Part shown: positions 564-18,882 of the stretch, one piece after another
How positions within the stretch are numbered: position 1 is the stretch's first letter
How the letters are laid out: every line of letters starts with the position of its first letter
Virus genome (UHGV): UHGV-0378206
Direction: 5' to 3' (one strand)
From: a virus
DNA: 34,503 nucleotides
The notes under the pieces: generated by a model
What the model was told of the DNA's origin: nothing
Database searches by the model: none
What the model saw: only the letters and a program-made list of their open reading frames with translations
Program-made: the position numbers and the translations under genes

Positions 564-586
564 ATTTAAATATTTGTTTTTATAGT

Positions 587-1117
587 GTGGCAAGGAAAAA
601 CATGTTCGATTTTCTTATGATTAACTCTGAGTATGTGTCTATTGTCGGTGCGGTTTTAGCTTTTGTGGGCACAATTGTACTCGCTTTTTCTATGGGAAAA
701 GTATTGTGGGAATTCATGTTCTCAATTGACGCGATATCTACCAGTATTGAAAGTATAGCAGACGGGGGCGATATTTACGTCTTTCAAGGACTTCATGAAA
801 GAATATCAAAAGCTATTTCTTCATCCAAAAAGCCCACTTGGATTGGGATAATATTAGTATTTATATCAATGCTAATGCAAGGTTATTCTTTATATCTAAG
901 TTTTGAAAGTAATAAAATAAATTCGATGAAGTACGAAAATAGAATAAATGAAGTTCATGACGAAATTACTGAAACAAAAAATACACTGAACATATTAAAC
1001 AGTAAGTTGTTAGCTAAAATTGATGAAAAACAGTTCCAAATAGATGAGCTTAAACGTATTCAGAGAGAACAAAATGAAAGTTTACGGAGCATTATTAAAA
1101 AACAGAAAAAGAATTAA
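587..1117 (+). CDS. hypothetical membrane protein with C-terminal coiled-coil
   Basis: ORF with two hydrophobic helices ('VSIVGAVLAFVGTIVLAF', 'WIGIILVFISMLMQGY') then a charged, heptad-like C-terminus; start is GTG at 587 or ATG at 602 (RBS 'aagga'). Confidence 0.45.
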   Translation: MARKNMFDFLMINSEYVSIVGAVLAFVGTIVLAFSMGKVLWEFMFSIDAISTSIESIADGGDIYVFQGLHERISKAISSSKKPTWIGIILVFISMLMQGYSLYLSFESNKINSMKYENRINEVHDEITETKNTLNILNSKLLAKIDEKQFQIDELKRIQREQNESLRSIIKKQKKN

Positions 1118-1165
1118 TAAATTTAGATGTTGATTTTTTCAACCGTAGGGCAGAAAAAACAAGGC

Positions 1166-1194
1166 AACAAATAGAAGCTCGGCTTCTATTTGTT
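1166..1194 (+). terminator. candidate stem-loop terminator downstream of 587..1117 gene
   Basis: 12-bp perfect inverted repeat 'acaaatagaag'/'cttctatttgt' with a 5-nt loop; weak U-tract, so intrinsic-terminator status is uncertain. Confidence 0.3.
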
Positions 1195-1281
1195 AGCTCT
1201 TGCTCTTCAATTATGAATTAAAAATTTGATATTTAATTATTTTGATGATAACAATGAAGAAATATAAAAAGAGGAGGTGTT

Positions 1282-1479
1282 ATGAAAGCAGTTTATTTAT
1301 TTGGGGTGATTTTTTTAATAATTGATTTGTTGCTTGGTTTTTATATTTTTGATAAAGGCGGGACCGATGCAGCTATCAAATCTGGGCTAATGGGGAATCT
1401 GTCGGTATGTATTATTTTTATGACTGTGGGAGTGTATGTGCCGGTACTTATCTGGTCACTTGCAGAAAGGAAAAAATAG
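1282..1479 (+). CDS. small hydrophobic (membrane) protein, 65 aa
   Basis: Strong RBS 'agaggagg' upstream of ATG; two hydrophobic segments; function unknown. Confidence 0.4.
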   Translation: MKAVYLFGVIFLIIDLLLGFYIFDKGGTDAAIKSGLMGNLSVCIIFMTVGVYVPVLIWSLAERKK

Positions 1480-1518
1480 CTATTAATACAACTCGAATAT
1501 AATAGCTATTACCGGAAC

Positions 1519-2058
1519 TTATTTCTTTATCGAGATCTCTATTTTATTATCCTTTTCGACCAAGGCATATATATCTTTGCTATCCAATGAGCGAATGGAG
1601 ATATACGTGTGGTCATCTGGCTTTTGTTTTACACAGATGACCGGGGCTTCATTTTCGGGATTGGCCAACTTGCTGTATTCATTGGAAAATTCCTTTAGAC
1701 TAATTAATAATTTTATCACTCCAGACAAGCTTACCATTGTAAGGAATAGATAACCCCAGACACTGGAGAAAATATTAGCAAATGTAAGGTTAGAATTAAT
1801 ATTCGAGATGCAATATATATAATATGCATAACTTATTAGAGAGAATAAACTGAGCAACGAATCTACAGACTTTTTTAAAACTTCACTGTAGATATTATGT
1901 GAGAAGAAAAATATAATACCACCGCAAAACAATGGAATTATAAGCAGTATCAATGTCAGGGCCCAATTGTGGTTGTTACCATATATGTAAAGGGAGATGA
2001 AGCATGTAAATGTAGTTAACAATGCGACCAATTTACTGAGAGTAGGATTATTTATCAC
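1519..2058 (-). CDS. multi-pass membrane protein (about 4 TM helices) with short soluble C-terminal domain
   Basis: 179-aa ORF, RBS 'aggag' 7 nt upstream of ATG; hydrophobic stretches through the first ~110 aa; same strand as and downstream of the SIR2-like gene. Confidence 0.5.
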   Translation of the reverse strand: MINNPTLSKLVALLTTFTCFISLYIYGNNHNWALTLILLIIPLFCGGIIFFFSHNIYSEVLKKSVDSLLSLFSLISYAYYIYCISNINSNLTFANIFSSVWGYLFLTMVSLSGVIKLLISLKEFSNEYSKLANPENEAPVICVKQKPDDHTYISIRSLDSKDIYALVEKDNKIEISIKK

Positions 2059-2279
2059 TTGAAACTCCTGTTAAAAACTTCGGTTTTAATTGTCAATAAT
2101 AGATCATATGCTGTAGTTGATATAGTCATATAAACATAACAGTCTTCTGTATGATGTGCTGTTTTTATCTTTGCAGTTTAATAAGTAAATTTTTATTTGT
2201 TCTGAGGGGATTCTATTCTCATAATAACTATGGAAAATGCAATCATCTTTTTTAGATAAAGGGATTGTTAAGTCTTCAA

Positions 2280-3602
2280 TTATTTCCTCTGTAGATAAAT
2301 GAATGTTTTACAGTTATTATTAGAGGTTCTTTCAAAATGATCAGCAAGTTTATTTATTTGCTGATCTTTATACATTTCTATATTGTCAAGTTCAGGACAG
2401 ATTTCACTGAACGCAAAGATTGGAAAGAACTGGGAACTCTGTATCTTCTGTTTATTTAATAATATAATTAATTGCTTATTTGCTTCCTCTACAATCTTGA
2501 AATAATCTTGCATCATTTCAGGCTTGGTTTGAAACTCATACTTAACTCGTTTATGAGAACCTACGGCTAATACCATTTGTCCATTTTTTAACTGGTCTAA
2601 ATCTTCTGTGATTTTTACTTCAATTTCACCACCGCTTTTTATTTCATTCCAGACTTTTTGAACTTTTCTAATATCCATTGCTGAAACTGGTAATATTAAG
2701 TCTGATAAACTTTTATATATAGAAGAGTAATCGTCGGTTTTGATTTTATTTATTCTTATAGTGGTAGCATTCCCTATGTATATATCGTGTTCAGATATGG
2801 CAGTAGATCTTGAATCTTTTTCATATTCCACAAGCAAAAAATTACTTCTAATTTTATTTGCTATATCTGAGTTAGTAGGTACATAGGAAAAAATGGTCTT
2901 TAGAATTTGCTGTATGTTTCTGTCACTAATGCTGTATCCAATAAAGATAACAGGATTATGAATAAATAGTGAGAGTAATTGTGCTCTAATTAGTTCATAT
3001 TTGTTATCGAAATAGTCATAATCTTGTTCTGTAATCGTTAGTTCGTAAGGGGCTGACACACAACCATGTATTTTATAGACAGAACCATAAGGATTACTTA
3101 AAAGTATGCTATTGCCTATTAGTGGTTCAAATTCAAAGAGTTGCTCAATCAATAAATCATAGTTCGTTGTGATGATTGATCCGATGTTTTTTCTCATCTT
3201 AATGAGTTCAGCTATCTCTTCGCTTTTTTCTTCTTTTAATTCTACAGTTGATAATAGCTGAGTAATATATATTTTAAATCTGCTTAAATTAATTCCCTTA
3301 TCCATCTCTTTATAGAAAATATCATTTATTTCTTTAAACTTTCCATTTCTATCGTTAGACAAAGTTTCATTGAATTTTCTTTCTATATCACTGGCAATTT
3401 TATCATATTTATATTCACCATTGATTTGACATTTTGATTTAATATCAAGATATGTTTCTTTATCACCAGTGAGTTCGAAACAAATATATGAGAGTAAACC
3501 ATTCCAATCATAGGAATTAGAGAGATATCGCAAGCTAAACCCAGTTCCGATGAAGAGCACTGGATGATTTCGATACTTTGCTATGAATTCATTAATTTCC
3601 AT
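2280..3602 (-). CDS. SIR2-like (SIR2_2-type) domain protein, probable NAD+-consuming defence effector
   Basis: Ordered motifs in the N-terminal ~230 aa: 'PVLFIGTGFS' (GxGxS), 'IITTNYDLL' (TTNYD), 'YKIHGC' (KxHG), 'VIFIGYSISD' (GYSxxD); C-terminal ~200 aa unassigned. Confidence 0.75.
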   Translation of the reverse strand: MEINEFIAKYRNHPVLFIGTGFSLRYLSNSYDWNGLLSYICFELTGDKETYLDIKSKCQINGEYKYDKIASDIERKFNETLSNDRNGKFKEINDIFYKEMDKGINLSRFKIYITQLLSTVELKEEKSEEIAELIKMRKNIGSIITTNYDLLIEQLFEFEPLIGNSILLSNPYGSVYKIHGCVSAPYELTITEQDYDYFDNKYELIRAQLLSLFIHNPVIFIGYSISDRNIQQILKTIFSYVPTNSDIANKIRSNFLLVEYEKDSRSTAISEHDIYIGNATTIRINKIKTDDYSSIYKSLSDLILPVSAMDIRKVQKVWNEIKSGGEIEVKITEDLDQLKNGQMVLAVGSHKRVKYEFQTKPEMMQDYFKIVEEANKQLIILLNKQKIQSSQFFPIFAFSEICPELDNIEMYKDQQINKLADHFERTSNNNCKTFIYLQRK

Positions 3603-3812
3603 ATCTCACCATAACTTGTTGATTTTATGTGCTTTAATGTGTTACTGTTGACGTATTAAGGTATATCTAACATACATTATTATTCTTTATGCCAGTTGTC
3701 TAGCATATAGTCATAACTCTTTAAGCCAAAAAATTGTCTGTTCGCGCTTTGTCCGTAGTACATGTGTATACTAACATGTATTAGATTTTTCATTATACGT
3801 TTGGTGTAATTA

Positions 3813-4577
3813 ATGCTGAAAATTAACAAATGTCCACTTTGCCGTAAAAATAATGAACTTGTCCATAGCCATTTGATTTCTAAGTTTGTTTATAAAATTA
3901 TTCGCGAATGTCAGCCATATGAGAAAATAAACGAATGTTCTCCAATGATTGTTGATAGCCGTTTAGGTCTTCTACAGAAATCAACACGTCAAGAAAAACA
4001 AATTCTCCTTTGTTCTGCATGTGAAGAGTTATTTTCTGAAAAAGAAACTGCGATGGCGAAAATTATTCGTGAACTGCAAAGAACAGATGTGAGGCAGAAA
4101 AAGATATTAGCATACCAAAAGGAACTGTGTAGCAAATTAAATGGTCAAGACATTCTTTATTTTACAGATGAAAAAGTCTCTACAATTAAATATTTTGCTA
4201 TGTTGAATTTATTTAGAAATATAGTGTGCGAGAGAGTGCCTCGCATAGTAAGAAAAGAGTTAATTAAGATTAGAAAATATCTTCTACGCGAATCTGATTA
4301 TTCTTTGCCATTAATCATTCATGTTAACGACAGTGATTTTTTCCCCATAGCCTCAACTCCATTCAAAATTGATTCTGATAATTGCTATCATTATATTTTT
4401 TTAATTCCTGAGTTTTTATTTCATTTCTTCTTTTGTATGTCACAACTAAACTTGCAGTTTAATGACGTAATGATTATGCCAGAACATCTTTCTTCAAAAG
4501 AAGAAGTGGAAATTCACCTTAGGAACTCAATGAAAGACATTCGCATTGCTAATAATGCAAAGAAATATATAAAATGA
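3813..4577 (+). CDS. hypothetical protein with N-terminal Cys/His cluster
   Basis: 254-aa ORF; 'CPLC...HSH...CSAC' suggests a zinc-binding module; remainder unrecognised; weak RBS. Confidence 0.45.
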   Translation: MLKINKCPLCRKNNELVHSHLISKFVYKIIRECQPYEKINECSPMIVDSRLGLLQKSTRQEKQILLCSACEELFSEKETAMAKIIRELQRTDVRQKKILAYQKELCSKLNGQDILYFTDEKVSTIKYFAMLNLFRNIVCERVPRIVRKELIKIRKYLLRESDYSLPLIIHVNDSDFFPIASTPFKIDSDNCYHYIFLIPEFLFHFFFCMSQLNLQFNDVMIMPEHLSSKEEVEIHLRNSMKDIRIANNAKKYIK

Positions 4578-4625
4578 TTAGCTTTTGATGGACTTCGAGT
4601 GACTTGGCAAATAAGTACGTATTGG

Positions 4626-4916
4626 TTATTTTTTGAGGCATTTAATAGCATAATGAAAAGAAATGTCCTCTAATCCAGTTTTTGTTTTCAAATAAAAACA
4701 TCTGGTGCCGTGTAGTGATCTACCTGCAGTGATTCCTATGCATTCATTCTTACTTTTTTCTTCCCACTCATCGTGGTTTTTAAATAATTCGATCAAAAAA
4801 TTATAATCACTAATGCTCACTTCTTGATGGTCTTTGGTTTTGTTTAGAATGCTTTGTGCCTGACTGATTATATCTTTCTTAGTAGCATAAATAATATTGT
4901 TGATAGTGTATGACAT
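4626..4916 (-). CDS. hypothetical protein, 96 aa
   Basis: ORF with RBS 'agga' upstream of ATG; no recognisable motif. Confidence 0.4.
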   Translation of the reverse strand: MSYTINNIIYATKKDIISQAQSILNKTKDHQEVSISDYNFLIELFKNHDEWEEKSKNECIGITAGRSLHGTRCFYLKTKTGLEDISFHYAIKCLKK

Positions 4917-5115
4917 GTTTTTTCCTATTGTTAGATAACATCGATTTTCTTACCTAATTAGGCATGAGATATTAAATTGTAACATATTTAATTGATAGTG
5001 CTTTCTGGAATCAGATTTTTGAAAGTTTAAAATGTTTTTCAGTTCTATTATTGTAAATAATAAAAACGTATCCTTAACAGAACAGTATGGAATTTCTAAA
5101 AAATCTATAATCATA

Positions 5116-5165
5116 AATTAATTCACTGAAGTTTTGACTGCTAAAATTACTTCAGTGAATTAATT
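5116..5165. repeat. 17-bp perfect inverted repeat (hairpin) just 3' of the 5189..6328 gene
   Basis: 'aattaattcactgaagt' (5116..5132) and its exact reverse complement 'acttcagtgaattaatt' (5149..5165) with a 16-nt loop; likely operon terminator or regulatory/recombination site. Confidence 0.5.
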
Positions 5166-5188
5166 ATGAATGGAAATTTGCTTTGTAG

Positions 5189-6328
5189 TTAGTTTTGTTT
5201 TTGATAGTCTCTTTGATGTTGAAGAATCAATTCAAATTCTCTAACTTCTGCAACTATATGAGTTACATGATGTGTCGTGTCTATTGATACCCAATTCGTA
5301 GTATTACCAACAAATTCTTCATTGGCACATTCATAAATCTTTTTATCACCCCAGCTAAATTTCTCACCTTTATAATGGGGGGATGAAACCAGTATCTTAC
5401 ACAAATCTTGCATTTGTGCTCCCTTTTTACCGGTAGCACGAGAATACCCTCTTACAACGAAAAGGCTATCGTCTATAGTATATCTAATCTTACCGTTAGC
5501 ATCGGGTGCAATGATGTCATCTCCGATAGAGGGATTAACGATACCATAATCTCCAAATACTAAATTTAAATCAGGTTGGAATTTTTTGAATGCTTTCCAT
5601 ACCTTAGCTTCTTTACGGATAACTATACCTTCTGAATTGTGGGTAGGAACCATTCCATTAATATCACTTGTTATTGAACTTCCTGCAATTGAAATAAATT
5701 TAAAATCATACTTGTATAATGAATCCAGTGCTCTCTGCACTGTTTCATTTAGGTCAACTATGGATGTTTTAGTTATATCTTCTAAATCTATCATTACCGA
5801 GCAATTTTCTGGCATTGCACCCAAGGAAGTTAAAATGCCTTCTATTGTTTCAATAAACGGTTCCTCTTCGATCATATCTTCAAAAGCAAAGGAGTTTAAC
5901 CGAATTACAAAGTCAGTATAGCTTGTACCTAATTGTTGCAAAGTAGTTGCATACTCATCATCTTCCCATCGATCATAACCGACGACAGGAATGATATTGC
6001 ACCCAGCATTTCTTAAGGCACTGGTGAGATGACTCAAAATATGCTCTCCTGTTTCAAGAGAAGAGTTTGGAGGCCATCTGCTTATATCAATCCCCATGGG
6101 GAGATTTTGCATCCTTTCGGACAATGTTTTAATTGTATTGTTTAGAAAAAACTCAACTGGATTACCTATGTTAGAGTATTTTTTATTTGTTCTCTGCTTT
6201 TTCGACAGATATGGGATTTCAAAAATCGGAAGCATGTCCCTCATAACGTGGGGATAAGGAAGCATAGACTTAATGGCATCTAACTCACCTTTCTTAGCTT
6301 TTAAAATCGGCATATATTTAGGGTACAT
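5189..6328 (-). CDS. hypothetical protein (379 aa), third gene of the HigB/HigA-ImmA operon
   Basis: ORF starts 14 nt after the stop of the upstream gene, RBS 'gaggtg'; N-terminus 'MYPKYMPILKAKKGELDAIKSM'; no catalytic motif recognised by eye. Confidence 0.6.
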   Translation of the reverse strand: MYPKYMPILKAKKGELDAIKSMLPYPHVMRDMLPIFEIPYLSKKQRTNKKYSNIGNPVEFFLNNTIKTLSERMQNLPMGIDISRWPPNSSLETGEHILSHLTSALRNAGCNIIPVVGYDRWEDDEYATTLQQLGTSYTDFVIRLNSFAFEDMIEEEPFIETIEGILTSLGAMPENCSVMIDLEDITKTSIVDLNETVQRALDSLYKYDFKFISIAGSSITSDINGMVPTHNSEGIVIRKEAKVWKAFKKFQPDLNLVFGDYGIVNPSIGDDIIAPDANGKIRYTIDDSLFVVRGYSRATGKKGAQMQDLCKILVSSPHYKGEKFSWGDKKIYECANEEFVGNTTNWVSIDTTHHVTHIVAEVREFELILQHQRDYQKQN

Positions 6329-6341
6329 ATAGACACCTCGT

Positions 6342-7571
6342 CTACCAAATATGATTAGGGAAATGCTTTCTTACTTCACCTTGACCAACTAAATCAGAAA
6401 ATTGATTGTATTTTCCAGTTTCTCTTCTAATTCTTCCTGCGATTATTGCAGGATGAATTCTTAATTCTCTTGAAAGCTCATCTATCGTGAATGTGCTGGG
6501 ATTTAAGTAAGCTGAACTCCGTTTCCAAATGACGCGAGGAATGAGAGTATCTCTGGCTATTCGATTAGCCTCTGCTTCCATTTTGTCTGTACTATTCTTG
6601 AGTGTTTCAATGTCATCGATAAATGTGTTAGTAGAATCTGCATGTTTCCAGATATGGACTAACTCATGTAAAAGTGTAAACCAGAAATTATCCAAACGAT
6701 CTTGTCTTAAAGTGAGTGCAATAATTGGTCTACCGTCAATATCCCTCAGAGCAGCCCCATCAACAGCAGTACCAGTCAGACAAGGTTCAATGATCACACA
6801 AATCCCATTTTTTTCTAAGAACTCCACCGCTAATAGAGGTCCATATTCGGACCAACTTAAATGTGCGATCTCTTTTAAAAAATCTTTAGTTATGCAATCT
6901 TGCTTAAATTTAGTTGCGAGTTTTTTTTCCCTGGCTTTCTGGACTACTCTTGCAATCCATGCATGTAATTTATAAACAGTTGTAGGTGAGTAAGACTCTC
7001 CGTTAAGTGTTCGCTTGAAGGCTGCTGTAGAAAAATTCGCACCCAAACCCTCAATGAAATTTTTGACTTTTTCTTCTGTAGTCGTTTTTGTTTGCGAGAC
7101 AATGTTTTCTATCCAACCTTTGGAAAGCATTTCTTTTATAGGAAATTTTGACCAATTAACCTCCTCAACTGGAGAACGATTTGCATATCCAGTTTCTGTT
7201 TCTAAGCCCAATAATGTTTGAGGAGACATACCTAAACCTATTGATAAGGCTTTGATCATAGCGACGGTTAAAGGACGTTTTCCCGATAACACCTCTGATA
7301 CACGACTTTTTGTTCCAAAATATGGGGTGAGATCCGCTTGGCGTAAGCCCTGTTCGTCCATTCGGAATTTGATTGCCTCGATTGGATCTACCGGTGTTAC
7401 TGGATAGTTAGCATTTTCATAATTTTCAATAACAACTGTAAGTAAATCAAGACGTTCTGATTCTTCAGATCCTGCAGGAAGATCCAATCTGAGTAATCTC
7501 TCAACTTCTGAAAGGGCCGCATGATATTGTTCTTCAGTTCGAATAACCCGAACTTCAGTAAGTTTACTCAT
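6342..7571 (-). CDS. HigA-like HTH antitoxin domain fused to ImmA/IrrE-type zinc metallopeptidase domain
   Basis: N-terminal region resembles HigA-type HTH antitoxins ('GTKSRVSEVLSGKRPLTVAMIKALSIGLGMSPQTL'); C-terminal half has HEXXH 'LLHELVHIW'; start overlaps upstream stop as ATGA. Confidence 0.7.
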   Translation of the reverse strand: MSKLTEVRVIRTEEQYHAALSEVERLLRLDLPAGSEESERLDLLTVVIENYENANYPVTPVDPIEAIKFRMDEQGLRQADLTPYFGTKSRVSEVLSGKRPLTVAMIKALSIGLGMSPQTLLGLETETGYANRSPVEEVNWSKFPIKEMLSKGWIENIVSQTKTTTEEKVKNFIEGLGANFSTAAFKRTLNGESYSPTTVYKLHAWIARVVQKAREKKLATKFKQDCITKDFLKEIAHLSWSEYGPLLAVEFLEKNGICVIIEPCLTGTAVDGAALRDIDGRPIIALTLRQDRLDNFWFTLLHELVHIWKHADSTNTFIDDIETLKNSTDKMEAEANRIARDTLIPRVIWKRSSAYLNPSTFTIDELSRELRIHPAIIAGRIRRETGKYNQFSDLVGQGEVRKHFPNHIW

Positions 7572-7831
7572 TTAGATACCACCTGGTTAATCACCGCAAT
7601 GCTCCTTTCAAACTGAAATGTTACTTTTATGCCCTGCGATTTAATGCCTCGAACAAAGAACACATAGCACAAATTATCAATCTGCTGTGCTCTGGGGAAA
7701 GCATCTAAAACTCCCTTAGCATCTTTCCAGTAAGCGTTAGTGAGCTCTGCAACCCAAGCGGAAAGCCAAACATCCGTTTCAGGGTTAGTACCACTTAGCA
7801 CTTGAAGCCTTTGCTTGCCGATTAGTCGCAT
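7568..7831 (-). CDS. higB: HigB-family (RelE/ParE-fold) toxin-like protein
   Basis: About 87 aa from the internal ATG with RBS 'ggaga' (ORF extends to 7882); sequence pattern resembles E. coli-type HigB; toxin-upstream-of-antitoxin order as in higBA. Confidence 0.55.
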   Translation of the reverse strand: MRLIGKQRLQVLSGTNPETDVWLSAWVAELTNAYWKDAKGVLDAFPRAQQIDNLCYVFFVRGIKSQGIKVTFQFERSIAVINQVVSK

Positions 7832-8037
7832 TGATGTTCTCCATTTGGGAACCAGAATAAGTGTGGTGATTCTGAATGTCAATACAATGTTCCCATAAGT
7901 GGAACTTGTCGCCTCCAGTTCTCATCTCTTTATGGCTACATAACTCTAAGAATCAATGGAAAGCTCTTTAATAAGAATAAAAATATGATTTAGATCAAAT
8001 GTATATCGGCGTGCCGGGATGCTTATAGTGGGGCGAT

Positions 8038-9267
8038 TTAGGCCGCAATCGCTTTTAGCTTTTGAGCCTGAACATAGTTACTCCACCACTGCATGAGAAC
8101 CACTCGTTCTGCAAGATAATCTGCGCGATTATATGCGGCAATTATTTCATCTTTCTTCGAGTGAGCAAGGGCCGCTTCTAAGACATCTGTCCTGAACTTA
8201 CCCGACTCCTCTGAGGCCGTTCGTGCAATAGATCTCATTCCATGGGCTACAAGCTCTCCACCAAAGCCCATACGGATTATGGCCGCATTCGCTGTTTGTT
8301 CATGCATATGATTGAGTGGAGCTTTGATACTGGGGAAAACCCACTCTCTGTGCCCACTGATGGCTTTCATTGAATCCAAGACTCGCAAAGCTTCTTTGCT
8401 TAGTGGAACTTTGTGAGGCTTCTTCATTTTCATAAACTCAGCCGGGATGTTCCACATCGAGTTGTCAGTATCTATATCGGCCCATCTCGCACGAACGGCT
8501 TCCCCTGGACGAACCCAGGTCAGCAATTGCCATTCAATCAGCAATCTTGTCTCCATACGAACTGAGGCATTGTTTAACACCATTAGGAAGCGGGGTAACT
8601 CGGAAGGGGGTAATGCTGGCATATTCTGTTTTTTAGGCTTACTGAACCGTTGCCCAAGGTTGTCAGCCGGATTGAACTCGATAAGTTCTTCAGTCGCGGC
8701 CCAGCGAAAAATTTCATTTAATCGGGAAATGATTCGCCGTAAGGTTTCGAGGACTCCTCGTTGTTCAATAGGGTCGAGATGTTGCTTTAAGAGTTTGGGT
8801 CGGATCTCATTGATAGGAACCTTACCCAAGCCGGGAAATATATTTCTCTCCAAGCTTCGCCAGATGTCTTCTGCATGGTCTTGTGAGATACCAGAGGTCT
8901 TTACCTTCTCATCCAACCATTTCCTTGCCACGGCTTGGAGAGTGTGTTCAGTAGCATTCTTTAAGGCATTAGCTTTATCGTTGTTATGAACTTGGGGATC
9001 AATGCCATTAGCAAGCAAGGAAAGGTATTCATCTCGTAAGGCTCTGGCTCTTGCCAGTGTAAGGTGAGGATAGGTCCCAAGGCTCATTTTGGTTCTTTTT
9101 TTACTCACTGGCACTGCATACCTGAAATACCAATTCTTCTTTCCTCCTTTCGAGAGGGGAGCGATTCGTAGTATCAAACCATCTCCGTCAAACAAGTTGA
9201 TTTCTTTGTCGGCTGGCTTGGTGCTTTTGATTTCAGTGTCAGTGAGCTTCTTAGCGATTTTTGCCAT
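8038..9267 (-). CDS. intA: tyrosine integrase, IntA/P4 family (CP4-57-like)
   Basis: 'DIWRSLERNIFP' and C-terminal 'HGMRSIARTA...LAHS...AYNR' are integrase catalytic-domain features; sits next to the ssrA 3' fragment as in CP4-57; start at ATG 9267 (RBS 'gaggg'), alternative ATG at 9309. Confidence 0.85.
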   Translation of the reverse strand: MAKIAKKLTDTEIKSTKPADKEINLFDGDGLILRIAPLSKGGKKNWYFRYAVPVSKKRTKMSLGTYPHLTLARARALRDEYLSLLANGIDPQVHNNDKANALKNATEHTLQAVARKWLDEKVKTSGISQDHAEDIWRSLERNIFPGLGKVPINEIRPKLLKQHLDPIEQRGVLETLRRIISRLNEIFRWAATEELIEFNPADNLGQRFSKPKKQNMPALPPSELPRFLMVLNNASVRMETRLLIEWQLLTWVRPGEAVRARWADIDTDNSMWNIPAEFMKMKKPHKVPLSKEALRVLDSMKAISGHREWVFPSIKAPLNHMHEQTANAAIIRMGFGGELVAHGMRSIARTASEESGKFRTDVLEAALAHSKKDEIIAAYNRADYLAERVVLMQWWSNYVQAQKLKAIAA

Positions 9268-9364
9268 TTTGGGACCCTCGGTTTTTGGACCCTTCTTAGT
9301 GGGTCCCATTCAGGGTGCCATATGTGATAGTTCTCAGCAATTCTCACTGGACGACAATAGACGT

Positions 9365-9397
9365 AAAAAAGCCCGCAGAGCTTATGCTATGCGGGCT
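9365..9397 (-). terminator. intrinsic terminator downstream of the ssrA 3' fragment
   Basis: On the minus strand a GC stem 'gcccgca...tgcgggc' is followed by a run of six U. Confidence 0.6.
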
Positions 9398-9432
9398 TAG
9401 TAGACTTCATTGTACTTCAAACAACTAAAAAG

Positions 9433-9477
9433 TGGTGGAGCTGGCGGGAGTTGAACCCGCGTCCGAAATTCCTACAT
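9433..9477 (-). other. ssrA: 45-nt 3' end of tmRNA gene ssrA (att core / direct repeat); not an intact tmRNA gene
   Basis: Reverse complement reads 'atgtaggaatttcggacgcgggttcaactcccgccagctccacca', the acceptor/T-arm 3' terminus of enterobacterial tmRNA; flanking sequence does not continue into the tmRNA body. Confidence 0.8.
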
Positions 9478-9603
9478 ACTATTTTTAATACAATGAAAAC
9501 AGTAGTTTGCGTTTAAAAACAGTGTGTTACTATTATCCTGTGTTTATCCGTTTTACGCATTTTTAATGCTCTGCCGCCAAGTTGTCGCCAATTTTAGGCT
9601 AAC

Positions 9604-10617
9604 TTACGGTTGGCTGTTTTTAACATTCAAAAGAAAGTTCTTCCAAATTATTTGCAGTGAATTTTTATCTAAATCAATCTTATGAGGTTTGATGTTTTTT
9701 CCTTCATATATATTTTTGTAATAGCAATCGATAGCAAAATGAATAGTTAAATTATCTGGATGTATGGCTAGTAGACCTCGGTCAAGCAAGGCATGAAGGG
9801 TAGGTTCAAGAGGTATTCCATTGTTGGTTCTATGGTTTTGGGTCTGAGAAAATGGTTCAAGGTGACATGCCTGCAATACTGGGAGGTTGTAACCTGTTAT
9901 TGCGCATACATTTGAGAAGTTTTTTAGAACCCTTTTTTTAAAGTCAACCTGTTCGCCAGAGTCACGCTGTAATACTGTTTGCAGATGAGTATTGCCTTTT
10001 GTGACAACTGGTATACTAATTGTATCAGAGGGATTTATAAATATGACTGGCGGTAGAGTAGGTTCTAGAATGTTTTTTTGTCCAAGAAACTGCCTTGATA
10101 ATAATTCATCTTTAGCGATTTTTATTGCTTCACTTTTTGTTAATGAAAGGCATGCCAGATTATACGCATCTACATTGAAATATTTAGTTTCCCTGTTTAG
10201 CGTAATGGATGATATTTTTTTATCGTGTTCTGCTATTGGTATACCTTTTGTGACAGGATGCGAAATGCTTTCAAGCAGTGTTGTATTGCCATTTATTTCT
10301 TTATTAAACAATGAGGTAGGGTGTTCAATCATATTGCTATGCTTGGCGCGATAGTGCTCATATAGGCCATGAGCACTTTTGAAATTTTTCTTGCATATTA
10401 TACAGCTAACATTTCCTCCATTAATTTTTTTTGAATTTCTTTTTCTGGATTCAACAAGAGAGTTTGTTAGATCTTCTCTTAGTTTTAATATTCTGAGGTT
10501 GGTTGGGTTGTTTCCTCGTCTATATGGTAAGCTCTCAAGTCTATTTAACTCATTTTTGAGGTGTTGGTACTGTTTACGTGAAATTAAATTAGGTTTCATA
10601 TTTAAGATTAAGATCAC
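9604..10617 (-). CDS. C2H2 zinc-finger plus HNH_2-type nuclease domain protein (prophage cargo between att and int)
   Basis: 'CIICKKNFKSAHGLYEHYRAKH' (C2H2 finger); C-terminal 'CAITGYNLPVLQACHLEP...NNGIPLEPTLHALLDRGLLAIH' matches the HNH_2 signature; gene is AT-rich unlike the adjacent int. Confidence 0.65.
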   Translation of the reverse strand: MILILNMKPNLISRKQYQHLKNELNRLESLPYRRGNNPTNLRILKLREDLTNSLVESRKRNSKKINGGNVSCIICKKNFKSAHGLYEHYRAKHSNMIEHPTSLFNKEINGNTTLLESISHPVTKGIPIAEHDKKISSITLNRETKYFNVDAYNLACLSLTKSEAIKIAKDELLSRQFLGQKNILEPTLPPVIFINPSDTISIPVVTKGNTHLQTVLQRDSGEQVDFKKRVLKNFSNVCAITGYNLPVLQACHLEPFSQTQNHRTNNGIPLEPTLHALLDRGLLAIHPDNLTIHFAIDCYYKNIYEGKNIKPHKIDLDKNSLQIIWKNFLLNVKNSQP

Positions 10618-10639
10618 TTTTGTGTACTTACATTATAAG

Positions 10640-11671
10640 TTACATGTTATTCGACAAGTATATAAAGTTCAAAGGGTTTTTCGTTACTGCATCTTCCAGA
10701 TGGTCTGGAGAAAAATGGGCGTAAATCATCGTCATTTTTATATCGGCATGGCCCAAAATATCGCGCAGTACCAGTATGTTTCCGCCGTTCATCATGAAAT
10801 GGCTGGCGAATGTATGGCGTAGAACGTGGGTGCATTGTCCCTCTGGCAGTTCAATACCAGCTCGTTTTACTGCCCGTTCAAAGGCTTTTCTGCATGGGGT
10901 GAATAGCCTTCCTCTGTTTTTAGGGAGTTCGTTGTAAAGATCCTGAGATATTGGCACGGTACGGTTTTTCTTGCCCTTCGTCTTGGTATAAGTGATGCGG
11001 TATTTGGATAACTGATGGCCCTGCAGATTTTCTGCTTCACTCCACCGTGCGCCAGTAGCTAGGCATATTTTTGCAATCATTAGTAAGCTAGGGCTTTGAG
11101 ATTCAGCACATGCCGCCAACAGGCGCTTGATTTCGTCCGTGGAAAGAAAAGCCAGCTCACCTTCGGCAATTTTGAAGGTCGGAAGTCCTGCCAGCGGGTT
11201 TGGTGCTGACCAGTGTCCTAGTTTTTTTAATGTACCGAACACCGATGATAGATTGCGCTGTTCAAGGTTTACCGTGCGGGGCTTAACGGGCGACATAAGC
11301 GTGCCATCTTCATTTCGTATTTCACCTTTTAACCGTGCTTCGCGGTATTTCGTAAAGTCTCCGGCTGTCAGCTCAGAGGCGATGGGGTCGCCTAGACCAT
11401 TACAGATAATTCTAAGTTTCGCCATGAGGCGCTTGGGGTCTGCGAGTGTCTGACCATACAGGGAATACCAAAGCTCAATTAATTCTGATAGGCGTCGCCG
11501 ATCATCCTTTTCACCCAACCACGGTTTTTTATTCACTTCTTCCATTGTGAAGCTTTCAAACGCAATGGCTTCGCCTTTCGTGGCAAATTGCTTACGCACG
11601 CGCTTGCCATTGCGTCCATTGGGATAGCACTCACACAACCATTTTCCGTTCGGCTGTTTTCTGATGGTCAT
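10640..11671 (-). CDS. int: P2-type tyrosine integrase
   Basis: 'GRNGKR', 'RRLSEL', 'TGARWSEA', 'RTVPIS', 'HVLRHTFASHFMMNGG', 'LGH...MTMIYAHFSPDHLEDAV' match P2 Int signature blocks. Confidence 0.9.
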   Translation of the reverse strand: MTIRKQPNGKWLCECYPNGRNGKRVRKQFATKGEAIAFESFTMEEVNKKPWLGEKDDRRRLSELIELWYSLYGQTLADPKRLMAKLRIICNGLGDPIASELTAGDFTKYREARLKGEIRNEDGTLMSPVKPRTVNLEQRNLSSVFGTLKKLGHWSAPNPLAGLPTFKIAEGELAFLSTDEIKRLLAACAESQSPSLLMIAKICLATGARWSEAENLQGHQLSKYRITYTKTKGKKNRTVPISQDLYNELPKNRGRLFTPCRKAFERAVKRAGIELPEGQCTHVLRHTFASHFMMNGGNILVLRDILGHADIKMTMIYAHFSPDHLEDAVTKNPLNFIYLSNNM

Positions 11672-11672
11672 A

Positions 11673-12305
11673 TCAAAGGCTCTTAATGATTTTCAGTGCG
11701 CGGCCTACTACCTCAATGTCATCCAGATCGCACTCAAACGATGAATCATCCTGATGCACTACTAATTTGTTTCCCGGGAGTCGAGTCAATTTAACGATGC
11801 TTTTTATCCCGTCGATATCGACTAACCACATACCATTTACTGGTGGTGTTTGGTTGCGATCTATTAAATAAGAATCACCAGAAGTAGTCACCAGCAGTAG
11901 GTTGCTTGAGTCTGAGGGGAGTATGCTGCTATCAATGATTGCTTTTCCAGCATCGACCAATAAACCACCGTTGAGAGTCGCCTTGTCAATTTCAGGAGAT
12001 ACTAGTTCAGAAAGAGGTACAACCTTGCTGGAGTTCACGGAATTGATATTTTTTTTAGGTTCAATGTTTGGACCTGGATCCCCCTGTCCGGTGGTTAGCC
12101 ACAGTAAAGAAACTCCTGTTTCCAAGGCGCACTGAATCACCCACTCTGCAGGGAAACTATCTCTTAAGTATCTGTTTGCCATGGTGCTTTTTGATGCGCC
12201 TAAGTGATCGCAAAGTTGCTGTCTGGACTTGAAATCATAGGCTGCCATTAGTCTATGGATAGCCTCTCTTCCCCCTGTATTCTCTCCAACCTTTACCTGT
12301 ATCAT
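11673..12305 (-). CDS. cI: 186-type CI immunity repressor
   Basis: N-terminal HTH ('QCALETGVSLLWLTTGQG') and C-terminal 'WLVDIDGIKSIVKLTRLPGNKL...FECDLDDIEVVGR' resemble coliphage 186 CI; divergent from the cox/apl-like gene. Confidence 0.7.
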   Translation of the reverse strand: MIQVKVGENTGGREAIHRLMAAYDFKSRQQLCDHLGASKSTMANRYLRDSFPAEWVIQCALETGVSLLWLTTGQGDPGPNIEPKKNINSVNSSKVVPLSELVSPEIDKATLNGGLLVDAGKAIIDSSILPSDSSNLLLVTTSGDSYLIDRNQTPPVNGMWLVDIDGIKSIVKLTRLPGNKLVVHQDDSSFECDLDDIEVVGRALKIIKSL

Positions 12306-12317
12306 TTTTTAATCCTG

Positions 12318-12369
12318 TTGACGTATCAAATATTGGATCGTAGTATCTCGATGTATCAAATATTGAATC
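12318..12369 (+). promoter_or_regulatory. candidate early rightward promoter with two repeated operator-like sites
   Basis: -35 'ttgacg' (12318..12323), 17-nt spacer, -10 'tagtat' (12341..12346); 18-nt near-identical direct repeats 'gtatcaaatattggatcg' (12323..12340) and 'gtatcaaatattgaatca' (12352..12369), each with internal dyad symmetry. Confidence 0.4.
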
Positions 12370-12424
12370 AAGTAAAACGAGATAAAACGACGTAAACCAA
12401 ACCTTAATCGGGAGATACTGCACT

Positions 12425-12667
12425 ATGAGCACTGATATTTCAATTCGTGTACCAAAAGAGATGGCTACGCCTGCAGAGTTCGCGGAATGGGAAGGTATCT
12501 CCCGCGGCTCCGTGTATCAAAAAATTCACCATGGTCAGCTTGCTAAATACATGGTCAAGAAAGAAAAAAACAAAGGCCGCGTAAGCCTGCGTTATTTAAT
12601 GTACAAAACCGATCAGGTCCGTGAATCCCTCGGTCATTCCAACTTCCGCGTCATTGTTGGTAAGTAA
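12425..12667 (+). CDS. Cox/Apl-like small HTH regulator/excisionase (putative)
   Basis: 80-aa ORF first in the rightward early operon; HTH-like 'AEFAEWEGISRGSVYQKIHHGQL'; same position as P2 cox / 186 apl. Confidence 0.5.
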   Translation: MSTDISIRVPKEMATPAEFAEWEGISRGSVYQKIHHGQLAKYMVKKEKNKGRVSLRYLMYKTDQVRESLGHSNFRVIVGK

Positions 12668-12699
12668 GTTCAATTATGAGAACTTTCTAAGGGGGTAGC

Positions 12700-13209
12700 A
12701 TGTTTGATTATAAGATTTCCAAACACCCGCATTTTGATGAAGCCTGTAGAGCTTTTGCACTTCGTCACAATATGGCGAAGCTGGCAGAACGTGCAGGAAT
12801 GAATGTCCAGACTCTGCGAAACAAACTCAACCCAGATCAACCGCATCAGCTCAATGCGCCAGATATCTGGCTACTTACCGATCTGACGGAAGATTCAACG
12901 CTGGTAGACGGTTTTCTGGCACAGATTCACTGCCTGCCATGTGTACCGATTAATGAGGTGGCAAAAGAGAAACTGCCACATTACGTCATGAGTGCAACCG
13001 CAGAGATCGGGCGTGTTGCTGCAGGTGCGGTATCTGGCGATGTAAAAACCAGTGCAGGTCGTCGTGATGCTATCAGCAGCATTAACTCTGTTACACGACT
13101 GATGGCGTTAGCTGCTGTTTCATTGCAGGCCCGTTTACAGGTTAATCCTGCGATGGCAAGTGCAGTTGATACTGTAACTGGCCTCGGTGCTTCATTCGGT
13201 TTGCTGTGA
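12700..13209 (+). CDS. cII: phage CII-like regulatory protein (186 CII family)
   Basis: 'MFDYKISKHPHFDEACRAFALRHNMAKLAERAGM...LRNKLNPDQPH' resembles 186 CII; RBS 'aagggggtag'. Confidence 0.7.
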   Translation: MFDYKISKHPHFDEACRAFALRHNMAKLAERAGMNVQTLRNKLNPDQPHQLNAPDIWLLTDLTEDSTLVDGFLAQIHCLPCVPINEVAKEKLPHYVMSATAEIGRVAAGAVSGDVKTSAGRRDAISSINSVTRLMALAAVSLQARLQVNPAMASAVDTVTGLGASFGLL

Positions 13210-13216
13210 GGTGCTT

Positions 13217-13417
13217 ATGCTGACGAAAGAACCATCATTTGCATCGCTGCTGGTAAAACAAAGTCCGGCAATGCACTACGGTCACGGCTGGATCATGGGT
13301 GAGGATGGTAAACGCTGGCATCCGTGCCGTTCGCAAGATGAATTGCTGGCAGAACTATCAACGAAAAAACGGGGGAACCAATGGCTATTGAAGGCGCTGC
13401 GGCGACTGTTCCATTAA
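13217..13417 (+). CDS. hypothetical early phage protein
   Basis: ORF 13187..13417; preferred start ATG 13217 after RBS 'gaggtg'. Confidence 0.4.
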   Translation: MLTKEPSFASLLVKQSPAMHYGHGWIMGEDGKRWHPCRSQDELLAELSTKKRGNQWLLKALRRLFH

Positions 13418-13722
13418 GACCCGGTGAACGCCTGAATGGACTTAATCATATTGCGGAGTTAAGGGCGAAAGTTTTTGGCCTGAATATTGAGTCAGAGCTG
13501 GAGCGGTTTATTAAAGATATGCGTGATCCACGGGATATCAATAATGAACAAAATAAACGGGCACTGGCTGCCATATTCTTTATGGCAAAAATTCCAGCTG
13601 AACGTCATAGCATCAGCATTAATGAGCTGACCACTGACGAAAAGCGGGAGTTGATTAAAGCAATGAATCATTTTCGTGCAGTGGTGAGCTTATTTCCCAG
13701 ACGGTTAACCATGCCGAATTAA
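13381..13722 (+). CDS. hypothetical early phage protein
   Basis: 113-aa ORF in the early operon; function not recognised. Confidence 0.4.
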   Translation: MAIEGAAATVPLRPGERLNGLNHIAELRAKVFGLNIESELERFIKDMRDPRDINNEQNKRALAAIFFMAKIPAERHSISINELTTDEKRELIKAMNHFRAVVSLFPRRLTMPN

Positions 13723-13783
13723 CCAACTAATGAAATTAATGGCGTAAACCCGCCGGGCATCCCTTTATCTAAATTCAGGAGAA

Positions 13784-14023
13784 TTGATTATGCGTAATAT
13801 TGAAACCCTCACGACTAAAACCGGACCGGATGACGCAGGGCTTAATATTTTACTGACAGAGGCTCGTCTGGAAGAACGCCGGGCAAGGGCTGAAGCAATG
13901 GCAGCTCGCCTTGATAGTCTGGCGTGTCATATTACATCCCGCCAGCTAAACCACGTCGAAGCGGCAGAACTGCTGCGTGTGACTGCTGAAGCAATCCAGA
14001 ACGAAGCGCAGGAGATCCACTAA
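13784..14023 (+). CDS. hypothetical early phage protein
   Basis: 79-aa ORF with RBS 'caggag'; coiled-coil-like. Confidence 0.4.
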   Translation: MIMRNIETLTTKTGPDDAGLNILLTEARLEERRARAEAMAARLDSLACHITSRQLNHVEAAELLRVTAEAIQNEAQEIH

Positions 14024-14250
14024 TGGCTGATGCAATGGATCTCGTACAGCAGCGCGTTGAAGAAGAACGCCAGCGCCATATCCGTGCTGCCCGTGCCAAA
14101 ACACCGGGCGTGTCACGCGTACTTTGCATTGAATGTGAAGCGCCAATTCCGCCAGCACGACGCCGCGCCATTCCGGGAGTGCAGCTTTGCATTACCTGTC
14201 AGGAAATCGCAGAACTGAAAGGCAAACATTACAACGGAGGTGCTGTATGA
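14023..14250 (+). CDS. TraR/DksA-family C4 zinc-finger protein
   Basis: 'CIECEAPIP...CITCQE' four-Cys finger; typical small P2/186 early protein; stop overlaps the dam start (ATGA). Confidence 0.65.
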   Translation: MADAMDLVQQRVEEERQRHIRAARAKTPGVSRVLCIECEAPIPPARRRAIPGVQLCITCQEIAELKGKHYNGGAV

Positions 14251-15095
14251 GCACCATCCTGAAATGGGCGGGAAATAAAACGGCCATTATGGCAGAACTG
14301 AAAAAATACCTTCCTGCTGGCCCGCGACTGGTTGAACCTTTCGCGGGTTCCTGCGCAGTGATGATGGAGACGGATTACCCCAGCTATCTGGTTGCGGATA
14401 TTAATTCTGATTTAATCAACCTCTATAAAAAGGTTGCCGCTGATTGTGAATCGTTTATATCTCGCGCCAGAGTTTTATTTGAGAACGCAAACAGGGAGAT
14501 GGCTTATTACAACATAAGGCAGGAGTTTAATTACTCAACTGAAATTACTGATTTCATGAAAGCAGTATATTTCCTGTATCTCAATCGTCACGGTTACCGT
14601 GGTTTATGTCGCTATAACAAGAGCGGGCATTTCAACATTCCCTACGGTAATTATAAAAATCCGTATTTCCCTGAAAAAGAAATTCGTGCATTTGCAGAAA
14701 AAGCCCAGCGGGCAACATTTATCTGCGCCAGCTTCGATGAAACGCTGGCAATGTTGCACGCGGGGGATGTTGTGTATTGCGATCCGCCTTATGACGGTAC
14801 GTTTTCCGGTTATCACACTGACGGCTTCACTGAAGATGACCAGTATCACCTGGCATCCGTTCTTGAACATCGGTCATCAGAAGGACATCCGGTCATTGTT
14901 TCTAACAGTGACACATCCCTGATCCGTTCGCTGTATCGCAATTTCACTCACCACTACATCAAGGCAAAACGCAGCATTGGCGTGTCAGCTGGCGAGAGTA
15001 AATCTGCAACAGAAATCATTGCCACCAAATCAGCTGGGTGGTTTGGTGTCGATTTTGCCAGCGGCTCTGACCGTACCGTTGAGGTACGCGCATGA
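14247..15095 (+). CDS. dam: DNA adenine methyltransferase (Dam family)
   Basis: N-terminal 'LKWAGNK...EPFAGS' AdoMet-binding motif and 'DPPY' catalytic motif ('[10 protein letters not shown]'); ORF 14187..15095 with preferred start 14247. Confidence 0.85.
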
Positions 15096-16102
15096 ATGCT
15101 ATCGATCCGCGTTGCTTTGCCTCAGGCACAATTAACGTCATCACTACTTCTGGTGGCAAAGATAGTCTCGCTCAATGGCTAAGAGCCATTGAAAACGATG
15201 TTCCGCATATTTCTGTATTTGCCGATACGGGTCATGAACATCCACAGACAATAGAATATCTGGATTATCTGGAATCAAAGCTGGGCAAGATTATTCGCGT
15301 CAAAGCGGATTTCACACGCCAGATAGAAGGGAAACGTAAATTCATTGCGGAAAAGTGGCCCATTTCTCTCGTTGAGGAATGTGGTATGTCGACAGATGAG
15401 GCTGAGGAACGTATTTACCGGGCACTGGAAATCCTTAAACCAACCGGCGTTCCGTTTCTTGATTTGTGCATGTGGAAAGGTCGCTTCCCTTCAACAAAAG
15501 CTCGTTTCTGCACTTTTGAACTGAAACATGAACCAATACGTACACAGGTAATCGATCCAGCTCTGGATGAATACGATGAGGTAATAAGCTGGCAAGGAGT
15601 CCGGGGGCAGGAATCACCGGAACGTGCATTGTTGCCTGAGTGGGAGGACGATGCAGACAATACTCTGGGGCTGCATGTTTATCGTCCGATCCTTAATTGG
15701 CTGCATGAGGATGTGTTTGCTATTGCCAAACGTCATGGCATTAAGCCTAACCCCCTTTATATGCAGGGATGCAGTCGTGTCGGTTGTATGCCATGCATTC
15801 ATGCTCGCAAGTCAGAACTTGGAGAGATTTTCCAACGCTGGCCAGAAGAAATCCGCCGAGTGGCTGAGTGGGAAAGACTGGTTGCGGAATGTTCAAGACG
15901 TGGCAATTCAACGTTCTTTCAATCCACGCATGATCCGCGCCGTGCTGAAAAACGGATCGAAGTCATAACTGTTGATGCTTATGGCATTGAAACTTATCGG
16001 GACTGGGCCTTAACGACTCGGGGCGGTATGCAGTTTGACCTGCTGGCAGGCATGAATGATAAAGCGGTGTGCAGCAGTGTATATGCAGGAGTCTGTGAGT
16101 GA
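15092..16102 (+). CDS. PAPS-reductase-like (PP-loop ATP pyrophosphatase family) protein
   Basis: PP-loop 'TSGGKDS' near N-terminus; Cys cluster '[13 protein letters not shown]'; translationally coupled to dam and gene A. Confidence 0.7.
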
Positions 16103-18540
16103 CAGAGATCAGCACAGGCCGTCTTGCCGATCCATTTGTCAGTGTAACTTCCGGTAGCATTGAGAATTCTGCCGGGGGTTATTCGTGGAATTTACCTAAG
16201 AAAGCCATTAACCCTTATCTGGACCCGGCGGAAGTTGCGCCGGTTTCTGCGCTTTCAAACCTGATCACTCTGTACGCTACCGATAACGAGCAGGAACAAC
16301 TGCGCCGCGAGGCACTGAGTGATCAGGTCTGGGAGCGTTATTTCTTTAATGAATCCCGTGATCCTGTCCAGCGCGAAATGGAGCAGGATAAGCTCATTAG
16401 CCGGGCAAAGTTGGCGCATGAGCAGCAGCGTTTTAACCCGGACATGGTCATTCTGGCAGACGTCAGCGCCCAGCCCTCCCATATCAGCAAGCCGCTGATG
16501 CAACGTATTGAATACTTCAGCAGCCTGGGCAGGCCAAAGGCTTATTCCCGCTATTTACGTGAGACGATTAAGCCATGTCTGGAACGACTGGAGCATGTAC
16601 GCGACAGCCAGCTATCTGCATCTTTTCGTTTTATGGCAAGCCATGTAGGGCTGGACGGCCTGCTGATTCTGCCTGAAATGAGTCAGGATCAGGTGAAACG
16701 CCTGTCTACCCTTGTCGCTGCGCATATGAGTATGTGCCTTGATGCAGCTTGTGGTGATTTGTATGCCACCGATGACGTTAAGCCAGAAGAAATCCGCAAG
16801 ACATGGGAAAAGGTGGCAGCGGAAACCCTGCGTCTGGATGTCATCCCGCCTGCGTTTGAGCAACTCCGTCGGAAAAGAAACCGCCGTAAACCCGTGCCCT
16901 ATGAACTCATTCCGGGTTCGCTGGCGCGTATGTTGTGCGCCGACTGGTGGTACCGGAAATTATGGAAAATGCGTTGCGAATGGCGGGAAGAGCAGTTGCG
17001 TGCTGTCTGCCTGGTCAGCAAAAAAGCATCTCCCTATGTCAGCTATGAAGCCGTGATGCATAAACGTGAGCAGCGCCGCAAGTCACTGGAGTTTTTCCGT
17101 TCTCATGAACTGGTGAACGAAGAGGGCGACACGCTGGATATGGAAGACGTGGTAAACGCCAGCAGCAGCAACCCGGCGCACCGCCGCAATGAGATGATGG
17201 CCTGTGTTAAAGGTCTGGAGCTTATCGCGGAAATGCGCGGTGACTGCGCCGTTTTCTACACCATTACCTGTCCGTCACGTTTCCATTCTACGCTCAATAA
17301 CGGCAGACCAAACCCAACCTGGACAAATGCGACGGTAAGACAAAGCAGCGATTATCTGGTCGGCATGTTTGCTGCATTTCGTAAGGCGATGCACAAAGCC
17401 GGGTTGCGCTGGTATGGCGTGCGGGTGGCTGAGCCGCATCATGACGGTACAGTTCACTGGCACCTGTTGTGTTTCATGCGCAAAAAAGACCGCCGCGCCA
17501 TTACTGCATTGTTGCGTAAGTTTGCCATCCGTGAAGACCGCGAGGAACTGGGTAATAACACTGGTCCACGCTTTAAATCTGAGCTGATAAACCCGCGCAA
17601 AGGAACGCCGACAAGCTACATCGCGAAATACATCAGTAAGAACATTGACGGGCGTGGTCTGGCTGGCGAGATCAGCAAGGAAACGGGTAAATCCCTGCGT
17701 GATAACGCTGAATACGTTAATGCCTGGGCGTCTCTGCATCGTGTACAGCAATTCCGCTTCTTTGGTATTCCGGGACGTCAGGCTTACCGTGAACTTCGCT
17801 TGCTGGCTGGTCAGGCGGCAAGGCAACAAGGTGACAAAAAAGCAGGTGCGCCGGTACTGGATAACCCGCGTCTTGATGCCATTCTGGCTGCTGCTGATGC
17901 TGGTTGTTTTGCCACCTACATCATGAAGCAGGGCGGCGTACTGGTCCCCCGCAAATATCACCTCATCAGAACCGCTTATGAAATCAACGAAGAGCCAACC
18001 GCCTATGGCGATCACGGTATTCGTATTTATGGCATCTGGTCACCCATTGCAGAGGGCAAGATCTGCACTCATGCAGTGAAGTGGAAAATGGTTCGTAAGG
18101 CCGTTGACGTTCAGGAGGCGGCAGCCGACCAGGGCGCTTGCGCCCCTTGGACTCGTGGCAATAACTGTCCCCTTGCTGAAAATTTGAACCAACAGGAGAA
18201 AGATAAATCAGCTGATGGGGACCCCAGAACGGACATTACCAGCATGGATGACAAGGAGTTGCACGATTACCTGCACAGTATGAGCAAAAAAGAGCGCCGG
18301 GAACTGGCAGCAAGGTTACGCCTGGTGAAACCGAAACGGCGTAAAGACTACAAACAGCGAATTACAGACCATCAGCGACTGCAGCTCGTGTATGAGCTGA
18401 AGTCCAGAGGATTTGATGGCAGCGAGAAAGAGGTCGATTTACTCCTTCGCGGAGGCAGTATTCCGTCAGGAGCAGGCCTGCGTATCTTCTATCGGAACCA
18501 GCGTTTGCAGGAAGATGATCAGTGGCGGAACCTGTATTAA
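16099..18540 (+). CDS. A: replication initiation endonuclease (P2 gpA family, rolling-circle HUH)
   Basis: 813-aa ORF with '[13 protein letters not shown]' HUH-type motif and conserved Tyr-containing region; position and size match P2 A. Confidence 0.85.
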
Positions 18541-18632
18541 TTACGCGGGTTAACAATTCGTGCTCTTAATAATACCAGGCATATCAGGCTGATGAACGTA
18601 AAAAAACGTTTTACATCAGTAAGATTATTATA

Positions 18633-18652
18633 TACTGTAAATATAAACAGTG
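18633..18652. promoter_or_regulatory. LexA (SOS) box
   Basis: 'tactgtaaatataaacagtg' = CTGT-N8-ACAG with AT-rich spacer, 41 nt upstream of the 18694 start. Confidence 0.6.
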
Positions 18653-18693
18653 GTTATGCATACAGTATTGCGTGTGGTGTCATAGGAGGAAAG

Positions 18694-18882
18694 ATGCAGG
18701 ACTATTTTTTGGAGTCTTTGAAGCTCCAGCGCATTGATTTTTTTCTTAAGCTTGTAGCGGCTAGTGAGTGTAGTGATGAGGAGAAGGGGCTGGCTCTGCA
18801 GTGGGTTTCTGAATTGACTGATGAACTCATGGCAAAAATCAGAACCCACGAATACAACCGCTCAATGGATGTCATCAGCTGA
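18694..18882 (+). CDS. hypothetical protein; possible N-terminal part of a Tum-like antirepressor
   Basis: 62 aa from ATG 18694 (RBS 'aggagga'); follows the LexA box; overlaps the next ORF in a different frame. Confidence 0.4.
   Translation: MQDYFLESLKLQRIDFFLKLVAASECSDEEKGLALQWVSELTDELMAKIRTHEYNRSMDVIS

Follow-up and report, generated by a model that had tools for sequence, protein, structure and literature searches.

A 45-nt copy of the 3' end of ssrA, the tmRNA gene, lies at 9433..9477 (minus strand) in the window, the whole 34,503-nt stretch of DNA analysed here. It is very probably (roughly 0.93) the original ssrA 3' end, displaced by integration of a Fels-2/186-type P2-like phage, giving the array ssrA, prophage, 45-mer and IntA-type island. 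The observations that carry this reading are the fragment itself, the two integrases beside it, the chimeric junction, both single-occupancy forms and a related full array in other strains, and the same 45-mer in a phage attP.

On the minus strand, positions 9433..9477 read ATGTAGGAATTTCGGACGCGGGTTCAACTCCCGCCAGCTCCACCA. E. coli K-12 ssrA ends in exactly these 45 nt (L002 1412..1456), as the preliminary description had stated for enterobacterial tmRNA. The ssrA 3' end is the same 45-mer in every other E. coli comparator aligned, and the 45-mer is found in all 5426 complete E. coli genomes, with 336 extra copies over one per genome. The window contains a single copy, also when up to three mismatches are allowed, and shuffling gave no chance copy (0 in 100 shuffles). 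A search of the window for a second or degenerate copy of the core returned just chance 12-mers and 20-mers in phage genes (24617, 13934).

ARAGORN detected no tRNA or tmRNA in the whole window, Rfam gave no family at gathering score, and in the alignment the stretch 5' of the 45-mer shows no relation to the ssrA body. Because no tmRNA is found by either program and the 5' side fails to align with ssrA, the 45-mer is best read as an att duplication and no part of an ssrA gene. The absence of a tmRNA body, also claimed from the letters alone, is thereby confirmed, and the possibility that the 45-mer belongs to a complete tmRNA gene is ruled out. It appears to be the att core common to the end of the P2-like prophage and the head of the IntA-type island.

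The fragment is followed on its island side by an intrinsic terminator (9365..9398, minus strand), which starts 34 bases 3' of the CCA end of the fragment. The stem AAGCCCGCA...UGCGGGCUU spans 9398..9369 and a run of six T residues extends down to 9365. The clean terminator reported earlier is borne out by its fold energy (-22.9 kcal/mol, z = -3.3) and by a pattern scan for terminators, which also recovers the 9398..9365 hairpin. By alignment, it is homologous to the terminator downstream of ssrA in K-12, and likewise in strains that carry the island only. Between this terminator and the start of the IntA-type integrase, at 9270..9320 (minus strand), GGGACCC, GGGTCC and GGGTCCC motifs are repeated. 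They are kept in E. coli WS4437A-1 and may be arm-type sites of the integrase or regulatory sites.

Two tyrosine integrases, both full length with catalytic domains, flank the fragment. On the left, a 409-aa P4/IntA-type integrase (8038..9267, minus strand; Pfam Arm-DNA-bind_3, Phage_int_M and Phage_integrase) lies on the downstream side of the fragment and is transcribed away from it. An IntA-type integrase had been proposed for this side. The position and type are correct; the protein shows only 49% identity to IntA of K-12, so it is an IntA-type (P4-type) integrase, not IntA itself. On the right, a P2-family, Fels-2-type integrase (10640..11671, minus strand; Pfam Int_N and Phage_integrase) is transcribed toward the fragment, and a single cargo gene for an HNH endonuclease (9604..10599, minus strand; Pfam HNH_2; phrog_20585, function unknown) lies between them, as had been described.

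Comparator strains contain each element alone beside ssrA. E. coli 2021CK-01361 is 99.7% identical to window 1..9432, and in it a complete ssrA abuts the same integrase with no prophage. Five further island-only contigs, obtained from isolates and from sequencing runs, match window 1..9480 at 99.96-99.98% identity. They differ from the window by one or two substitutions and at most one 1-nt indel over up to 9.5 kb. At the place of the fragment, each has a complete tmRNA (tag ANDENYALAA) ending in the 45-mer. In the island-only strains, the integrase thus directly adjoins a complete ssrA. E. coli ET734 represents the phage-only state. It is 99.7% identical to the window rightwards, starting exactly at 9433. 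In ET734 the 45-mer is followed by the native flank ATCATGATTGG... and ypjA, with no island, and this flank (ATCATGATTGGACGG...) is the native flank behind attR of CP4-57 (psaA) in K-12.

In a three-way alignment, the window agrees with the island-only strain on the left side and across the 45-mer, and with the phage-only strain across the 45-mer and on the right side. The breakpoints are 9432|9433 and 9477|9478, and the 45-mer is the sole segment common to all three. The window therefore reads, at the level of sequence, as a clean chimera at the 45-mer. These breakpoints set the borders of the prophage and the island, which is useful for annotation.

The double state is observed in the complete genome of E. 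coli WS4437A-1, which carries the whole array at 94% identity. Its left part comprises smpB, an intact ssrA, a phage-type terminator arm and a partly deleted P2-like prophage with CI, Int and HNH. Its right part comprises a second exact 45-mer, the IntA-type integrase and island, a degenerate fragment GCCAGCCCACCA, the native flank and ypjA. The two 45-mers are at L001 20145..20189, as the 3' end of the full ssrA, and at 39475..39519, as the fragment. The intact ssrA and the second copy of the repeat, expected from the att reading in the preliminary description, are thus both present in this related genome, with ssrA at the far end of the prophage. With both single-occupancy forms and this double form, the claim that two elements used one ssrA site in series is supported.

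The record of the Salmonella phage RE-2010 has 84-bp terminal repeats, which consist of a 39-nt terminator arm and the 45-mer. This repeat is the attP of the phage. The same terminator arm is also found behind the regenerated ssrA in WS4437A-1. The attP core is identical to the ssrA 3' end, and the replacement end would be supplied by the phage. The chimera at the 45-mer, the second copy in WS4437A-1 and the 45-mer in attP of RE-2010 agree with the earlier claim of an att direct repeat.

The window has no tmRNA body, and in principle the 45-mer could be what is left of an ssrA gene lost through a deletion or rearrangement rather than an att duplication. This pseudogene reading is practically excluded, as the 5' side of the fragment is the conserved attP arm of the phage, as in RE-2010, ET734 and Citrobacter lysogens, and as intact ssrA is kept at the other end of the prophage in related genomes. 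These two features of the comparators refute it.

The junction is found beyond these strains. With a query composed of the IntA N-terminus, the terminator, the 45-mer and the phage arm, covered by at least 80%, the tandem junction was observed in 62 of 5426 complete E. coli genomes (~1%). Two Citrobacter species representatives have the same junction of the phage arm and the 45-mer, with an integrase 92% identical, and a pattern scan of genome contigs for the phage arm and the 45-mer gave no matches besides these two.

Such distribution bears on the idea that the junction is an artefact, created when a metagenome assembler merged two strains, one with the phage and one with the island, via the 45-nt repeat. 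The sole 100% match found to the window is a metagenome scaffold (L010), which matches 1..19267 and stops inside the prophage. The window extends ~0.76 kb beyond the start of this scaffold, and the two are therefore different assemblies. These points leave some room for an artefact. Against it, the repeat is shorter than ordinary read lengths, at least two more places similar to the listed loci are reported, and the closed chromosome of WS4437A-1 has the full array. Since many closed genomes carry the same junction, a join made by the assembler is highly improbable.

The displacement of the ssrA 3' end by the phage would have proceeded as follows. The phage tyrosine integrase would recombine the attP core with the ssrA 3' end, somewhere inside the 45-nt block of identity. 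The phage-borne 3' end and terminator would make the tmRNA gene whole again at the ogr-proximal prophage end, which is outside the window. The int-proximal end would keep the old ssrA 3' end, next to the island-side terminator and the P4/IntA-type island, which was already present. The intact ssrA and the second 45-mer, followed by a phage-type terminator arm (AATAAA..AAGGGGTTACG..CCCCTTTTT), should then lie beside smpB ~10 kb past the right end of the window in the source genome; this distance is based on relatives, which measure 34-35.5 kb. Either element may still be able to excise. These steps follow the established targeting of tRNA and tmRNA genes by tyrosine integrases (PMC4383910; PMC3448106).

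Since both single-occupancy forms exist, the order of arrival is beyond proof from sequence. The island is more likely to have come first and the phage second, because the island abuts intact ssrA in five of the six island loci listed (L011-L015), following the phage in L010 alone, and because these loci are nearly identical to the window. This near-identity fits a recent phage insertion into an island-bearing lineage. In the reversed order, the phage would have lysogenised an island-free ssrA, and the IntA-type island would have entered the displaced 45-nt fragment later. The phage-only state exists, in ET734. The repeat of CP4-57 is only ~14 nt at the extreme 3' end, and so the 45-mer would be a sufficient attB for the island. 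P4-type integrases use a short 3'-terminal core, which is still within the 45-nt fragment. Against the five island loci abutting intact ssrA and their few differences from the window, the reversed order is unlikely.

The Fels-2/186-type P2-like prophage occupies 9478..34503 and extends beyond the window on the right. Its identity to the prophage of ET734 is 99.7%. It is estimated that ~25 kb of a ~35-kb prophage is inside the window. Compared with Felsduovirus-like records from Klebsiella and Salmonella, the identity is 92-95%, and the matches begin at 9433 or 9478. In the structural region, P2-like phage records match at 92-95% identity. The integrase is 95% identical to its counterpart in RE-2010 (Felsduovirus) and 39% identical to P2 Int, and 29 phage records have an integrase at least 90% identical to it. 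By these similarities, it is assigned to the ssrA-specific Fels-2 lineage.

Next to the integrase is a 186-type CI repressor gene (11673..12305, minus strand; Pfam Phage_CI_repr and Phage_CI_C). Divergent from cI is a gene for a Cox/Apl-like excisionase (12425..12667, plus strand; phrog_6912, excisionase, and phrog_575, Cox-like excisionase and repressor). It is followed by genes for CII, Fil, TraR, Dam, a PAPS-reductase-like protein, the GpA replication protein (Phage_GPA), DinI and an OLD-like ATPase-TOPRIM protein. For the early region, the families also appear in the gene annotation of L010, the 100% match to window 1..19267. Beyond the OLD-like gene, portal, terminase, capsid, lysis and tail genes continue up to the window end. 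The portal, terminase and capsid genes were assigned by ORF sizes matching those of loci that carry the same GpI protein. The P2-like gene set, with the CI/Apl switch, GpA, portal, terminase, capsid and tail genes, is thus present.

The OLD-family ATPase-TOPRIM protein (19356..21380, plus strand; 674 aa; AAA_15/AAA_21 and OLD-like_TOPRIM) is located in the GpA-GpQ hotspot of the prophage, where P2 has old/tin. In P2-like phages, cargo slots are described at the GpA-GpQ hotspot and at a minor hotspot between int and att (PMC9122126; PMC13586616), and the latter is a minor defence hotspot (PMC13586616). The HNH_2 gene in the att-int slot fits the minor hotspot. In other E. coli lysogens of related phages, this slot contains an anti-phage dCTP deaminase, GapS1 or a hypothetical gene, and in RE-2010 and the Citrobacter lysogens it contains other genes again.

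The proximal part of the IntA-type island occupies 1..9432 and runs past the left end of the window. Directly behind the integrase is a complete three-gene anti-phage system, PD-Lambda-2 (5189..7882, minus strand), which consists of a HigB-like A, an ImmA/IrrE-HTH B and a "Beta protein" C, with PADLOC E-values of 1e-28, 9e-178 and 5e-156, respectively. Family matches identified a DUF3223 gene (4626..4916, minus strand) and a SIR2/PDC-S25-like gene (2280..3602, minus strand), and this part of the island also holds hypothetical genes. No AlpA-like excisionase or regulator was found among the island ORFs within the window. The concentration of accessory genes pointed out earlier is real, and most of them are anti-phage defence genes in the family and PADLOC matches. 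The two delimited elements explain the pile-up of defence and accessory genes at this locus.

The SIR2/PDC-S25-like protein has 440 aa in the window; in the island-only strains it has 499 aa. The lengths differ because one base is changed in a T/A homopolymer run at ~2305, so that the C-terminal part is read in another frame. This is either a genuine frameshift or a mistake of the assembly.

The island extends further left than the window in 2021CK-01361 (L003), where 17150..24522 contains a relaxase/mobilisation protein, a cluster of additional tyrosine recombinases and then copies of IS1 and IS110. It could be an integrative mobilisable or a composite element. A pairing of P2 helper and P4 satellite was considered for the two elements and rejected; the part of the island in view has no P4 core genes, and a relaxase is found further along. 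A distal att or ssrA fragment of the island was not detectable in 2021CK-01361, where the distal region has probably been rearranged by IS. In the WS4437A-1 array, the distal repeat of the island is merely the degenerate fragment of ~12 nt ahead of the native flank.

The gene ssrA is the best-known integration hotspot in enterobacteria. Fels-2 and SopEPhi are described in PMC3448106 and PMC10107115 (citing Pelludat 2003) as integrating in ssrA. The same two papers present Fels-2, SopEPhi and SpaX as phages with P2 integrases at ssrA with a perfect distal repeat, and place islands of the CP4-57 type there too. The prophage in the window resembles Fels-2, SopEPhi and RE-2010 (Felsduovirus) in its integrase and in the 45-mer core, which is identical in attP. 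It shares with RE-2010 the module order att, cargo, int, cI / apl/cox, cII and the phage-borne terminator behind the regenerated ssrA. It differs from these phages in the cargo, which is an HNH endonuclease in the att-int slot and an OLD-like nuclease in the GpA-GpQ slot, and in the host, which is E. coli for the window prophage and Salmonella for the others.

The island resembles CP4-57 of K-12, in which a P4-type integrase gene directly follows the ssrA 3' end and has the same orientation, and a homologous terminator separates the two. The distal end of the WS4437A-1 array has the same degenerate fragment and native flank as attR (psaA) of CP4-57. In contrast, the integrase sequences are considerably diverged, as stated above, and the cargo is wholly different (PD-Lambda-2, SIR2, and the relaxase further on). 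The island in the window abuts the displaced fragment, whereas CP4-57 abuts the functional gene.

The arrangement also resembles the tandem island arrays at tRNA and tmRNA genes described with Islander/TIGER, in which every member brings an integrase and a tDNA fragment of its own, in series from a single target gene (PMC4383910). There is no material difference; the window contains only the middle fragment of the array and WS4437A-1 contains all of it. Among integration targets, the tmRNA gene shows the strongest enrichment, and tandem arrays in which an integrase and a fragment go with every element form a standard category (PMC4383910, citing Williams 2003). The tandem ssrA arrangement is thus ordinary, already known and common in E. 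coli, and represents no new biology.

One consequence can be suggested. When CP4-57 excises in K-12, T357 of ssrA is lost and tmRNA becomes inactive (PMC10107115). With both elements in tandem, excision of the island might instead recombine the displaced 45-mer and the degenerate fragment at the far end. This would leave the functional ssrA untouched and uncouple the excision from the switch from tmRNA to ArfA ribosome rescue. This proposal is tentative and rather doubtful. If true, the prophage would protect the functional gene against the T357 loss seen with excision of the CP4-57 type, which would be mildly new.

Two further regions of the prophage have distinct structures. In the early region, 14187..16102 (plus strand) codes for a Dam-type methylase and then for a 336-aa PAPS-reductase-like protein (SspD/DndC/BrxP-like in PADLOC), inserted ahead of the GpA gene. 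The PAPS-reductase-like gene is missing from the early operons of WS4437A-1 and RE-2010. In the tail-fibre region (32643..34503), there are oppositely directed ORFs, at 33278..33823 and 34034..34369 (minus strand). No exact match to the 501-aa fibre protein was found among protein records. In related prophages, a resolvase-type invertase is located just past the point in the tail-fibre region where the window stops. The segment 32643..34503 is therefore probably invertible.
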